Origin: a virus
Taxonomy: Duplodnaviria > Caudoviricetes
Length of the DNA stretch: 64,000 bases
IMG/VR virus record: IMGVR_UViG_3300027804_000068
Location: 2,752-66,751 of that record
Reading direction: 5' to 3' (one strand)
Every line of letters starts with the position of its first letter. Position 1 is the first letter of the stretch. A program made the position numbers and the translations under genes. Below the pieces are notes generated by a model. It was not told the DNA's origin and did no database searches. It saw nothing but the letters and a program-made list of their open reading frames with translations. Below are positions 14,194 to 23,825 of this stretch, piece by piece.

Positions 14194-14434
14194 CTTCAAT
14201 CCTTTCAATCTCAAAGATTTCATTTAGAAACTCCAAACCATACTTACCCACAACCCAAGCATCTTTATCCTCAAAGAACCGATCACCCACAGTTTCCATA
14301 TCATATCCTTCTGTGTTTTTATTGAAGAAAGCAACGACATAGCAACTATCACCAGAGTCGTGAGTATACCACTTGACGAGTTCATACTTGTTGTTGACTT
14401 TACTCCAACGAAACTCTATGTTACGAAACCTCAT
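14180..14434 (-). CDS. hypothetical protein
   Basis: ORF track (14461 start); MRFRNIE start preferred. Confidence 0.7.
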   Translation of the reverse strand: MRFRNIEFRWSKVNNKYELVKWYTHDSGDSCYVVAFFNKNTEGYDMETVGDRFFEDKDAWVVGKYGLEFLNEIFEIERIEEDNL

Positions 14435-14606
14435 TGCTCTCCTCAAAATCAAACCATTCATACAAAGAATTCATCGCACCCTCAACCACACAATCAACCA
14501 CAGCATCTTCATGCGGATTTTCTACATGCTTGTGAGCACGATTATAACCATAACGGACACCTTCTTCAAGTGCCATCTCTAATACTTTGCGAAAGTTAGG
14601 TTTCAT
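14421..14606 (-). CDS. hypothetical protein, copy 1 of a duplicated gene
   Basis: first 55 aa identical to 16491..16673. Confidence 0.8.
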   Translation of the reverse strand: MKPNFRKVLEMALEEGVRYGYNRAHKHVENPHEDAVVDCVVEGAMNSLYEWFDFEESNEVS

Positions 14607-16347: not shown

Positions 16348-16498
16348 TTAATACCTTCTCAATAGCGATTAAAGTTTCATATGGAATCCATGCAGGTTGC
16401 TCATTTCCAAATTGAACCTGAACCTCTCTAACTTTTTGGTCCAAGAATTTTGAATACGACACTCTAGTATTTTTTACATATGAGATAGGGTTATTCAT
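16334..16498 (-). CDS. hypothetical protein
   Basis: ORF track (16528 start); MNNPIS start preferred. Confidence 0.65.
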   Translation of the reverse strand: MNNPISYVKNTRVSYSKFLDQKVREVQVQFGNEQPAWIPYETLIAIEKVLNETN

Positions 16499-16673
16499 TG
16501 CATTTATCCTCAAAGTCAAACCATTCATACAGAGAGTTCATAGCACCCTCAACTACACAATCAACAACAGCATCTTCATGTGGATTCTCTACGTGTTTAT
16601 GAGCACGGTTGTATCCATAACGGACACCTTCTTCCAATGCCATTTCCAATACCTTACGGAAGTTGGGTTTCAT
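16491..16673 (-). CDS. hypothetical protein, copy 2 of a duplicated gene
   Basis: first 55 aa identical to 14421..14606. Confidence 0.8.
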   Translation of the reverse strand: MKPNFRKVLEMALEEGVRYGYNRAHKHVENPHEDAVVDCVVEGAMNSLYEWFDFEDKCNE

Positions 16674-16674
16674 A

Positions 16675-16878
16675 TCAATAAGGAAGAGATTTCAGACCAT
16701 CCAGAACTTCCTGAAAGCGTTCGGCACGACTCTTGTGGTGCTCTACATTCTCCTCAAGCACACTCACAATATCGTCCAGAACAACATCCAGAGACGCATC
16801 AGTATCAAAGTATTGTTGGATCGCTTCGGCAAGATACCGCCGCCGACTCCATTCCATACTATAAGGTTTGTAGTCCAT
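16675..16878 (-). CDS. hypothetical protein
   Basis: ORF track; follows a sigma70 promoter. Confidence 0.75.
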   Translation of the reverse strand: MDYKPYSMEWSRRRYLAEAIQQYFDTDASLDVVLDDIVSVLEENVEHHKSRAERFQEVLDGLKSLPY

Positions 16879-16899: not shown

Positions 16900-16928
16900 A
16901 TTATAAGAGTTTTTTCAGGTCTTGTCAA
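16900..16928 (-). promoter_or_regulatory. consensus sigma70 promoter
   Basis: TTGACA-N17-TATAAT. Confidence 0.85.
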
Positions 16929-17128
16929 GTCTTATTCTTTCTGTCATACTGATGCCATTTGCACCAACCATCAGGTGAAATCTTACCTTTTACCGCAGTA
17001 CAGGCATTAGGTTCTCTCCACATATTGCAATTAGAACACTTTTCATTGCCCTTTGGTTCATCTTGATATTTTGCTGTCGCTTTTGAAGCCTTTTCTTCTT
17101 CTGATAGAAACTCTTGAAATGATTTCAT
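16925..17128 (-). CDS. HiPIP-like [4Fe-4S] protein with capsid-targeting-like N-terminus
   Basis: YQ..P.G...C31-x2-C34-x8-C43-x12-C56 with GxISPxGWC; MKSFQEFLSE start at 17128 (TGATG overlap; track start 17146). Confidence 0.75.
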   Translation of the reverse strand: MKSFQEFLSEEEKASKATAKYQDEPKGNEKCSNCNMWREPNACTAVKGKISPDGWCKWHQYDRKNKT

Positions 17129-17445
17129 CAGTCCCTGGTCCTCCAATCGGTTTCGTCTTCATCACGCTTAAACCAATCGTGCAATTCATCTGGACTGTGA
17201 AAACCACGACGACCAAAACGTTCGTGTCCAAGACCACCAATATCCATTGAGTTCAGGAAATCATCCATTTCATCCATATTGGGATTTTCTGCTTTCCTTC
17301 TTGCTTGGCGGAGCATAGTTCCAGCAGAGCGATTTGCTTTTGCTAACTTCTCTGCCCAAATCATATCTTCTAAACTCACCTCTTCATGAAGAACAATCTT
17401 CTCACAGATTGCTTCCAGTCTCAATCTATACTGCGTAGAGAGCAT
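17128..17445 (-). CDS. conserved cyanophage-type hypothetical protein
   Basis: ORF track. Confidence 0.8.
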   Translation of the reverse strand: MLSTQYRLRLEAICEKIVLHEEVSLEDMIWAEKLAKANRSAGTMLRQARRKAENPNMDEMDDFLNSMDIGGLGHERFGRRGFHSPDELHDWFKRDEDETDWRTRD

Positions 17446-17469
17446 AAGAATTACCAGATATAGGGTTAT

Positions 17470-18042
17470 TTATTTTAGATTGAAAGAAATAGAAATTCTT
17501 TCTTCATTACTCAAATTGGGATGTACCTTATGGGGCAACCAACTAGGAAAAATATATAGAGTTCCTTCTTCACTTGGAACCATAAGAGAAGAAGAGTTAA
17601 AAACATTATAACTCTTAACTTTCATATTTGTCATCAAACTCATTGATGGATTTTCAAATTCAATATTTCCACAATCATTTGGTGTTTTTACATAATAAAC
17701 TCCACTTAAAGTAGATTGTGGGTGTGTATGACTCCAATTAAAATGACCATTTTCATTGATATTGATCCATGCAGTTCCCCCAGAGACAGGTTCAATACCC
17801 ATAAATTTACAAATCTCTAGAGAAAAATCAAAAATACACTTGGATACTTCTTTGAGTTCTTTTGGGGGTTTTTTTAAATTGAATTCATTAGATTGCCATC
17901 CACCAACATTGCTAATGACTCTTCCACTATCAGTTTGTTTTCTAAAAAGAGAAAAAGATTTTATACTTTCATTGTCGAGTGAAAATTTTTGACGAAATAA
18001 TGGTATGGAAAAAATAGTTGGATATGGATTTGATCGATTCAT
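17470..18042 (-). CDS. 2OG-Fe(II) oxygenase (TIGR02466-like)
   Basis: HTHPQSTLSGVYYV...FPSWLPHKV...RISISFN. Confidence 0.85.
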   Translation of the reverse strand: MNRSNPYPTIFSIPLFRQKFSLDNESIKSFSLFRKQTDSGRVISNVGGWQSNEFNLKKPPKELKEVSKCIFDFSLEICKFMGIEPVSGGTAWININENGHFNWSHTHPQSTLSGVYYVKTPNDCGNIEFENPSMSLMTNMKVKSYNVFNSSSLMVPSEEGTLYIFPSWLPHKVHPNLSNEERISISFNLK

Positions 18043-22367: not shown

Positions 22368-23825
22368 TTATTTATGAATTGAATCTATAATTTTCTTATG
22401 AGATATTTTTTTATTTTCAGATTTTTTAAGTTGATTATAAGTATAATTTTTCTTTGCCATCTCTAAAATTTGATTTTTATTATGTTTTGAGTTCAAATAA
22501 TCATTAATTGAATTTTTATTGAACATTTTTAATCCATTTGCAATCTGAATAAAACTATCAATAGGCCAAAAAAACTTAAATGGATTATCTCCCAAACTAA
22601 TGCTATCTAGAAATTCATTTCTACATTTTTCATCAATATCTTTAACCCACTCTTTTTTATTAGAAGTCATATATTTCCAAAATTCAGAGTCAGTTCGATT
22701 GGTATTGTAATGAAGACAAATAAAATCAATAATCGTTTCATATGTATTTAAATTTCTTTGATTAAATCTTTTTCGATTATGCTCCAAAAATTTTAAACTA
22801 GAATTTAATGAAACAAAATCATAGATTTGTTTTACAATGATGTGGATACCAGTCGATTCCAGAGGTTCAACAAATCCGCTTGATAATCCAATTGCTAAAC
22901 AATTACCGACCCATGCTTGGTCATAATAACCTGGTTTGTAATGAATGATTCTATCTGTTTTAAGTTCAACTCCAAATCGTTCTAATAACCAACTATTGTA
23001 TTTTTCTCTTGCTTCTTCATCTGTCGTAAATTTAGAAGAATAAAGATATCCTGTTCCATATCGATTTCCAATTGGTATTTGCCATATCCACCCATTATCA
23101 GTTGCTTCTGCAAGTGTATATGATGGAATCTCGTCAAAATTATGAGGTATTTGTTGGGGAATTGCCCTATCAATTGGCAAATAATCGGTTATATCATTCC
23201 ATTTTGTCTCTAGATTTTTAATCAGAATTGAATTAAATCCTGAACAATCAACATAAAAATCTGCGGTTATATTCCCACTATTTTTAAAATCTATACTTTC
23301 GATTTGATTATCTTTGATATTGATTTTCTCAGCGACATCATTTATGAATTGAACTTCATTGCTCAATCTTTCAAACATATAATTTGAAAAATCTTGAGTA
23401 TCTATGTGCAATGCATGATCATAATCGAAGTTTTCTTGTGGAAGTGTTGTAGTTGCCTCATTATATAAAAGACCTCCATCGTAGCAATCATTTGGAATTG
23501 AATATATTGCGCTTGAGTCATCACATTCACCCCAAAAGCTAACCTCCTGAAATCCATGAAAATATTCGGTATTAGGTATCCAATTTTTAAAATTAATTCC
23601 CAACTTTACGGTTACATTTAAATCTCGAATCAAGTCTGCAGTCGTAAGACCTATGGCATTTAAAAATTGATGGATTATGGGCGTCGTGCTTTCACCAACA
23701 GCAATATTTTTCTTTGTTGCATCATAATACAAAGATACTTGGACTTTATCTCCCCAGTAACTTTTTATCATGCTTGCAGCAATTAATCCGGCAGTTCCGG
23801 ATCCTAAAATAACAAATTTTTTCAT
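22368..23825 (-). CDS. flavin-dependent (tryptophan) halogenase family
   Basis: GSGTAG, AVGEST, VDCSG, GWIWQIP, GFVEPLESTG. Confidence 0.9.
   Translation of the reverse strand: MKKFVILGSGTAGLIAASMIKSYWGDKVQVSLYYDATKKNIAVGESTTPIIHQFLNAIGLTTADLIRDLNVTVKLGINFKNWIPNTEYFHGFQEVSFWGECDDSSAIYSIPNDCYDGGLLYNEATTTLPQENFDYDHALHIDTQDFSNYMFERLSNEVQFINDVAEKINIKDNQIESIDFKNSGNITADFYVDCSGFNSILIKNLETKWNDITDYLPIDRAIPQQIPHNFDEIPSYTLAEATDNGWIWQIPIGNRYGTGYLYSSKFTTDEEAREKYNSWLLERFGVELKTDRIIHYKPGYYDQAWVGNCLAIGLSSGFVEPLESTGIHIIVKQIYDFVSLNSSLKFLEHNRKRFNQRNLNTYETIIDFICLHYNTNRTDSEFWKYMTSNKKEWVKDIDEKCRNEFLDSISLGDNPFKFFWPIDSFIQIANGLKMFNKNSINDYLNSKHNKNQILEMAKKNYTYNQLKKSENKKISHKKIIDSIHK

Follow-up and report, generated by a model that had tools for sequence, protein, structure and literature searches.

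The smallest high-potential iron-sulfur proteins (HiPIPs) are those of the PioC class; PioC itself is exported by the twin-arginine translocation (Tat) pathway and serves as a periplasmic electron carrier, and the clusters of HiPIPs are unusually air-stable. In bacteriophage T4, which belongs to a phage group with the gp21 protease, the internal proteins IPI, IPII and IPIII are small, basic and otherwise unrelated, and they start with decapeptides of one pattern that ends in [LI]-x-E. Ten N-terminal residues of IPIII are enough to bring a protein into the head; residues 4 and 7 matter most for targeting, those at 8 and 10 for processing, and an Asp at position 10 stops processing but not targeting (PMC9026906). 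Head-carried proteins that are ejected at infection act as first-strike tools against host defences; described examples include the ADP-ribosyltransferase Alt, IPI*, which inhibits a restriction enzyme, MuF-linked enzymatic domains and the virion RNA polymerase of phage N4 (PMC5512222, PMC3012670). Here, we analyse a 64,000-nucleotide stretch (hereafter, the window) of the IMG/VR virus record IMGVR_UViG_3300027804_000068, in which a 67-codon gene on the minus strand (16925 to 17128) encodes a minimal PioC-type HiPIP behind a T4-type decapeptide. We lean towards the view that this protein, with its cluster, is loaded into the phage head, trimmed by a gp21-type protease and ejected with the DNA.

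Each of the closest described systems shares one part with this locus and differs in another. PioC of R. palustris TIE-1 (6XYV, 54 residues) has the same minimal core and the same ligand spacing as the phage protein, but cellular homologues of the PioC subfamily commonly start with a signal-peptide-like, often twin-arginine, leader, whereas the leader of the phage HiPIP is of the T4 type. Iro of Acidithiobacillus (NF041615) is a relative rather than an orthologue, because its 48 bits fall well short of the 100-bit equivalog cut-off. Compared with the T4 internal proteins, the phage HiPIP has an unrelated mature part with a predicted metalloprotein fold, its hosts are cyanobacterial, and its packaging is a step that we infer. 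T4 Alt and the MuF-linked or polyvalent ejected effectors (PMC5512222) follow the same head-delivery logic, and an ADP-ribosyltransferase of polyvalent proteins is among the cargo found behind the same decapeptide in our survey; unlike the polyvalent effectors, the HiPIP of the window stands alone behind a predicted cleavable tag. The literature that we searched yielded no published report of a HiPIP encoded by a phage or cyanophage. An iron-sulfur cluster in a virion has a precedent in gpL, which forms the tail tip of phage lambda, but gpL is a structural protein of the tail that differs in fold and location, does not belong to the HiPIPs and lacks a targeting tag. For a capsid targeting sequence in cyanophages, the search gave no report apart from a T4 review in which the two terms simply both occur, and the text of the 2017 survey of polyvalent proteins (Iyer et al., PMC5512222) contains none of the terms HiPIP, iron-sulfur, Fe-S or 4Fe-4S.

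A preliminary description made from the letters of the window had proposed a 67-residue open reading frame (ORF) encoding a HiPIP in which the export signal is replaced by a sequence resembling the T4 capsid targeting sequence. The ORF (P0001) is exactly as described: read from the sequence, it runs on the minus strand from an ATG through 67 codons to a TGA stop. Codons 1-10 (17099 to 17128) encode the leader MKSFQEFLSE, with a predicted gp21 cut after Glu10, and codons 11-67 (16928 to 17098) the predicted mature PioC-type domain of 57 residues (6.6 kDa, pI 9.0). The start at the proposed Met is secure because the ATG overlaps the stop codon of the preceding gene as TGATG, a Shine-Dalgarno-like GGAGG (17140 to 17144) lies 11 nucleotides (nt) 5' of it, and in one relative (L066/G018) an in-frame stop is found two codons 5' of the same Met. 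Moreover, when 46 unique nucleotide variants of the gene from viral contigs are compared, every segment shows more synonymous than non-synonymous differences; together with the supported start, this identifies the ORF as a real gene under selection. PHROGs contains no family for the protein.

Residues 11-67 belong, by family and by fold, to the minimal PioC-type HiPIPs. In Pfam, the profile HIPIP (PF01355) matches residues 12-57 with 23.6 bits, above the gathering cut-off of 22, and the best NCBIfam match is the HiPIP iron oxidase Iro (residues 13-57). The best sequence match among solved structures is PioC of Rhodopseudomonas palustris (6xyv, E 3.9e-10), with residues 12-59 of the query aligned to residues 3-50 of the chain at 40% identity over 48 columns and with the leader outside the aligned region. 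The spacing of the four cysteines (C-x2-C-x8-C-x12-C; C31, C34, C43 and C56) is identical to that of PioC. An exhaustive HMMER search recovered 1228 cluster representatives at E ≤0.001, and in an alignment of 57 of them Y21, C31, C34, C43, V46 and C56 are invariant and P25, P40, G48, G54 and W55 nearly so; the aromatic residue after C34 is conserved, as are Y21 and the G-W that precedes C56. An AlphaFold2 model built on the homologue alignment has a mean predicted local distance difference test (pLDDT) score of 83.5, with 86-94 in the core and 58 in the first ten residues. A Foldseek search of the Protein Data Bank (PDB) with this model places PioC first (template modelling score 0.78 on the target, root-mean-square deviation 1.3 Å), and the best 18 of the 19 PDB matches are all HiPIPs. 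Automatic ESM Atlas cluster names likewise label the viral relatives HiPIP-domain proteins. Thus, the profile search and the structural model that the preliminary description had put forward as checks both bear out its HiPIP assignment, and the ligand pattern that it had pointed out, Y21 and C31-x2-C34-x8-C43-x12-C56 with the GWC, is in place. By homology to PioC and by conservation, the putative cluster-binding segment extends from 16961 to 17068 on the minus strand (Y21, 17066-17068; C31, 17036-17038; C34, 17027-17029; C43, 17000-17002; C56, 16961-16963), and, by analogy with the family, one air-stable [4Fe-4S] cluster would be bound through C31, C34, C43 and C56.

The export signal is missing, again as described: on inspection, the sequence contains neither a twin-arginine motif nor a hydrophobic stretch. 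In a rough classification of the 150 best homologue clusters, about one third have a signal-like leader, often twin-arginine, about one fifth are fusions or long proteins, and the others consist of the bare domain or have a short leader. Because homologues that consist of the bare domain exist, the HiPIP fold is independent of the leader.

The window is part of a 66.7-kb viral contig that is rated 29% complete, so that tests for genes in the same genome rest on its relatives. It carries T4-type tail genes (a baseplate hub with tail lysozyme, a tail fibre and tail proteins). Among cultured phages, the one closest to it is Synechococcus phage S-SRM01 (Kyanoviridae), a freshwater cyanomyovirus whose homologue, QPX48026.1, is 86% identical to the HiPIP of the window and is preceded by the same 5' neighbour gene. 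At least 86 close homologues are present in IMG/VR contigs; the HiPIP of G016 is 94% identical to that of the window. Among 50,697 deposited phage records, matches are limited to S-SRM01 (two records) and one uncultured 484-kb phage. The carrier phages were sampled from surface fresh water.

The leader matches the capsid targeting sequence of T4. Read directly from NC_000866, T4 ipII and ipIII both start with MKTYQEFIAE, as the preliminary description had stated, and ipI starts with MKTFKEF. In a BLASTP comparison of the window protein with IPIII, the similarity is confined to residues 1-10, where six of the ten are identical and all ten are positive, and the proposed likeness to IPII and IPIII therefore stands; the homologue of G018 starts with MKSYQEFIAE, nine of its ten residues being those of IPII and IPIII. 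The leader of the window has the T4-type pattern, that is, hydrophobic residues at positions 4 and 7, Ile or Leu at 8 and Glu at 10. Across the 46 variants, no change is seen in M1, K2, F7 or E10; position 4 holds Phe, Tyr or Leu, position 8 holds Leu or Ile by way of five different codons, position 6 swaps between Glu and Asp and positions 3, 5 and 9 vary, whereas Asp is absent from position 10. As aligned, the variants follow the T4 map, with 4 and 7 as the predicted targeting positions and 8 and 10 as the predicted processing positions. The free choice of codons argues that the leader is selected as a peptide and not as RNA. We also weighed whether it is a recombination cassette conserved as DNA or RNA, and rejected this because the codons change freely and the residues are retained.

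The same leader is found in front of many unrelated proteins. We scanned IMG/VR for DNA encoding M-K-[ST]-F-[QK]-E-F-[LIM]-x-E, a pattern of about 41 bits by our own count, so that few chance matches are expected. The scan returned at least 120 loci and at least 123 ORF starts, with 3 HiPIPs among the matches listed. When the first eleven residues were masked, the 117 ORFs of at least 50 residues among the matches listed fell into at least 42 clusters without detectable mutual similarity, and the named cargo, again among the matches listed, comprises ART-PolyVal (the ADP-ribosyltransferase of polyvalent proteins, E 1e-23), DUF5661 and DUF6321. A looser, six-position leader rule was run on the whole genomes of S-SRM01 and G018 (a 175-kb contig). 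S-SRM01 has four tagged genes, namely, those for the HiPIP, a 102-residue phrog_1742 protein located in the virion gene cluster, a 440-residue protein annotated as 'cytidyltransferase' that starts with the tag MKNFHQFITE (QPX48223.1; 165428-166750; L235:7828-9147), and QPX48235; in G018 the count is likewise four, and two of these genes are next to each other. As a control, the rule is matched in S-SRM01 at 4 of 1579 Met positions versus 0 of 86,849 other open-frame positions. The four Met-position matches of G018 compare with 0.03 expected, and at most 0.03 are likewise expected in S-SRM01; thus, the match of the leader exceeds chance. The phrog_1742 family is present in 135 cultured cyanomyovirus records, among virion genes, with leaders such as MKSYNEFISE (Syn33), MKTFKQFMSE (S-SCSM1) and MKSYKQFMSE (S-RIM2). 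In P0030 and a relative in G026 (a 283-kb contig), the tag MKTFKQVLNE is followed by about 100 residues and only then by the HiPIP domain, so that tag and domain are separable. Collectively, these comparisons support the interpretation of the leader as a modular, selected tag for predicted head loading.

Two further observations concern tagged loci. In the complete 247-kb genome of a T4-like phage (G005), three tagged genes for products of 152, 440 and 122 residues lie within 3 kb (216333-219330; L204/L208/L210), a trio that resembles an internal-protein locus. In L219 and L220 (7962-8171), a 70-residue ORF starting with MISFKSFL corresponds, at 98% identity, to the C-terminal half of the HiPIP fusion P0032 and lacks the HiPIP domain, as though cargo modules had been exchanged behind similar leaders.

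A protease suited to the predicted cut is encoded by relatives. The gp21-type prohead protease (PF03420) was detected in 14 of 34 tested records that carry the HiPIP or the tag, including every complete-rated record tested (G005, G017, G024 and G026) and S-SRM01, the remaining records being fragments; it is also present in G016 and G018. In S-SRM01, the protease is QPX48181.1 (135233-135883; L223/L252), which is annotated as 'primosomal protein' but matches PF03420 with E 8e-38, aligns with T4 gp21 and is encoded between the portal and scaffold genes. The major head protein of T4, gp23, sheds a 65-residue propeptide that ends in S-F-L-T-E(65), followed by Ala, as read from the T4 sequence. By alignment, the predicted gp23 site is S-F-L-S-E followed by Ala in S-SRM01 and G016 and S-F-L-Y-E in G018, and residues 7-10 of the leader, F-L-S-E, are the same as the predicted gp23 maturation motif of S-SRM01 and G016. 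Residue 10 of the phage protein corresponds in position to the first residue of the solved PioC chain, and the predicted cut falls one residue after that position.

HiPIP domains are also built into larger phage proteins, in which they retain the Tyr and four-Cys pattern. These fusions come from the exhaustive HMMER search, the sequences being mostly those of uncharacterised phages, and they rest on that search because other searches gave no further forms: a word-based search for longer fused forms of the window protein found none, and a regional search with the MuF fusion matched only itself. No viral locus came up in a scan that started from P0083, a bare-domain homologue. The HiPIP domain is joined to Phage_Mu_F (head morphogenesis) in P0072 and to DUF2213, assigned by PHROGs as head maturation protease, in P0095 and P0101, the latter also with a NUDIX domain. 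It is N-terminal to GH19 lysins in P0043, P0055 and P0069, with LysM in addition in P0043, and accompanies a cytidyltransferase domain in P0081 (1126 residues) and P0089 (1177 residues). P0058 (1573 residues) combines the HiPIP domain with weak, sub-threshold matches to CTP_transf_like, ParB_N and Amidoligase_2, and in their domain make-up P0081, P0089 and P0058 look like polyvalent proteins. Finally, on viral contig L250 (4066-6273), a continuous 735-codon portal gene, situated between the terminase gene and the genes for the head protease and the major head protein, has a C-terminal DGHHR (ParB-like) motif and then a HiPIP domain; on its weak Pfam match, P0058 shows the same order of ParB_N and HiPIP. 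The architectures of the portal, MuF and head-protease fusions agree in direction and appear to point, independently of the leader, to the head interior.

The expression signals of the gene are mixed. Its 5' neighbour is a phrog_507 gene of 105 codons' product length (105 aa; 17128 to 17445, minus strand), and the TGATG overlap suggests that the two genes are translationally coupled. The coupling is seen in most relatives, and a 1- or 4-base overlap (TGATG or ATGA) with the preceding gene is kept in relatives even when that gene is a different one. On the minus strand at 17467 to 17474, 21 nt before the ATG of the phrog_507 gene, lies the box AATAAATA, of the cyanomyovirus late-promoter type, the consensus of which is NATAAATA (PMC2984593). 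Relatives with the same 5' gene keep the box at -27/-28 (AATAAATA, in some GATAAATA or CTAAATA) with differing flanks. In the window as a whole, ATAAATA occurs 15 times versus 21 expected, with 14 of the 15 on the coding strand and some directly preceding genes annotated as tail genes, and the exact T4 late box, TATAAATA, occurs just 3 times, in no case near the HiPIP gene. Expression in both the early and the late phase is plausible; the genes of the T4 internal proteins are likewise expressed in both. A separate promoter-like element is a perfect sigma-70 consensus at 16900-16928 on the minus strand (TTGACA, a 17-nt spacer and TATAAT, 12 of 12 positions), which overlaps the stop of the HiPIP gene and points toward the next small gene, at 16675-16878.

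Packaging, cleavage, ejection and a function after ejection, all of which we infer from these features, could be connected as follows. The precursor would consist of two modules, a T4-type capsid targeting sequence in the place of the cellular twin-arginine signal and the HiPIP that follows it, and would be transcribed at least partly late, from the NATAAATA box 5' of the two coupled genes. The protein would acquire its cluster in the cytoplasm of the host, and the leader would then dock the folded protein on the scaffolding core of the assembling prohead, where the gp21-type prohead protease would cut between Glu10, the end of F-L-S-E, and the Glu that follows. The mature product, which is basic and 57 residues long, would stay with the packaged DNA and, at the next infection, exit with it via the tail; the air stability of HiPIP clusters would suit such a course, and because the PioC class comprises the smallest HiPIPs, the folded holo-protein might pass through the tail channel. 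After ejection, it could be a one-electron redox effector that acts on a component of the host or of its defences, or a redox buffer for the packaged DNA.

Several observations weigh against this scenario. In the literature searched, no virion proteome was found for any carrier phage; the S-SRM01 paper is without virion proteomics, and the tagged family T4-GC1019 is absent from the proteomic entries in the supplement of Sullivan et al. 2010. Neither gp21 nor gp23 nor a second tagged gene was found in the window's own contig, which is a 29%-complete fragment. The residue after the predicted cut is Glu, as it is in 13 of the 123 tagged ORFs among the matches listed, where Ala, Ser and Cys dominate at this position. 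The annotation of S-SCSM1 lists the neighbours of its tagged phrog_1742 gene, but not that gene itself, as virion proteins. Sigma-70-like promoters are located upstream of the HiPIP gene (18899-18870) and inside the block of small genes, and early, non-structural expression is possible. Each of the head-protein fusions, for its part, is known from one or a few sequences. With these points taken into account, we still hold head loading followed by ejection to be the probable course.

If this is so, the repertoire of ejected proteins would gain redox chemistry from an iron-sulfur electron carrier packaged in the head, which would also rank among the rare proteins that bear a cofactor and must endure in a particle outside the cell. 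The idea can be tested now, because S-SRM01 is in culture and carries the HiPIP gene. More broadly, the T4 capsid targeting sequence is known mainly from coliphages, and our survey indicates dozens of cargo families in aquatic T4-like phages, such that the tag provides a simple sequence rule for spotting candidate ejected effectors in metagenomes. By the same survey, fusions of HiPIP domains to portal, MuF, protease and polyvalent-like proteins appear to be recurrent; the 2017 survey of polyvalent proteins is silent on them (PMC5512222).

Alternatively, the gene could be an unpackaged auxiliary gene, with a cytoplasmic HiPIP that shuttles electrons for an enzyme of the phage or the host, for example, one of the neighbouring 2OG-Fe(II) oxygenases, and with a decapeptide that is a conserved helix or a shared translation-start cassette and has no role in targeting. 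The setting is favourable to this explanation, given that the gene lies within a block of small early-type genes, adjoins a 2OG-Fe(II) oxygenase gene and has the sigma-70-like promoters upstream, and that cyanomyoviruses carry other electron carriers, plastocyanin and ferredoxin, according to their annotation. We nevertheless consider it a serious but unlikely competitor, because it leaves unexplained the presence of the same decapeptide on at least 42 unrelated cargo clusters, the protein-level selection on the T4 targeting and processing residues, the gp23-like end of the leader and the head-protein fusions; besides, the bare-domain homologues demonstrate that the fold can do without the leader.

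A second alternative accepts packaging and places the function inside the capsid, where the lysine-rich mature HiPIP would lie on the condensed DNA and serve either in charge neutralisation, as for the T4 internal proteins, or in sacrificial one-electron donation against the oxidation of DNA in sunlit water. Indeed, the mature part is basic, with 12 Lys and Arg among its 57 residues at pI 9.0, the clusters of HiPIPs are stable in air, the carriers come from surface fresh water, and lysines of T4 internal proteins contact DNA phosphates (PMC3012670). Set against this are the precedent of T4, where the internal proteins of known role act after ejection, as IPI* does against a restriction enzyme (PMC3012670), and the little buffering capacity that one electron per molecule affords. 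An exclusively in-capsid role therefore seems doubtful to us.

We entertain, as a tentative extension that may well not hold, that HiPIP domains are a widespread and so far unrecognised class of head-borne redox modules of tailed phages; in T4-like phages they would enter the head behind a cleavable tag, and elsewhere as fusions with the portal, MuF or head-protease proteins. Within such a scheme, the air-stable 3+/2+ cluster could be a switch that senses the move from an oxidising outside into the reducing cytoplasm and thereby governs the release or activity of ejected proteins, or an electron donor that protects packaged DNA against oxidative damage.

It is quite improbable, in our assessment, that the protein is a Cys4 structural module, a small rigid domain with a HiPIP-like fold and zinc or no metal at all. 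Four-Cys sites can hold zinc, and the Pfam score is just above the cut-off, but conservation extends beyond the ligands to the parts of HiPIPs that shield the cluster (Tyr21, an aromatic residue following C34 and the G-W ahead of C56), and the aligned core is 40% identical to that of PioC, a spectroscopically characterised [4Fe-4S] protein. A chance likeness to the T4 tag or a wrongly placed start codon can practically be set aside: an in-frame TTG 5' of the ATG would yield 73 residues, and some gene callers have lengthened homologues in this way, but the in-frame stop before the Met in G018, the conserved TGATG or ATGA overlaps and the lack of any match to the leader rule at the 86,849 non-Met positions of S-SRM01 speak against both.

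Two features elsewhere in the window are recorded here in their own right. Two small genes on the minus strand, at 14421-14606 and 16491-16673, encode nearly identical products (MKPNFRKVLEMALEEG...). Among the tail genes, a 485-residue gene product encoded at 22368-23825 (minus strand) matches the PHROG 'tryptophan halogenase' (phrog_2928) with E 9e-101.

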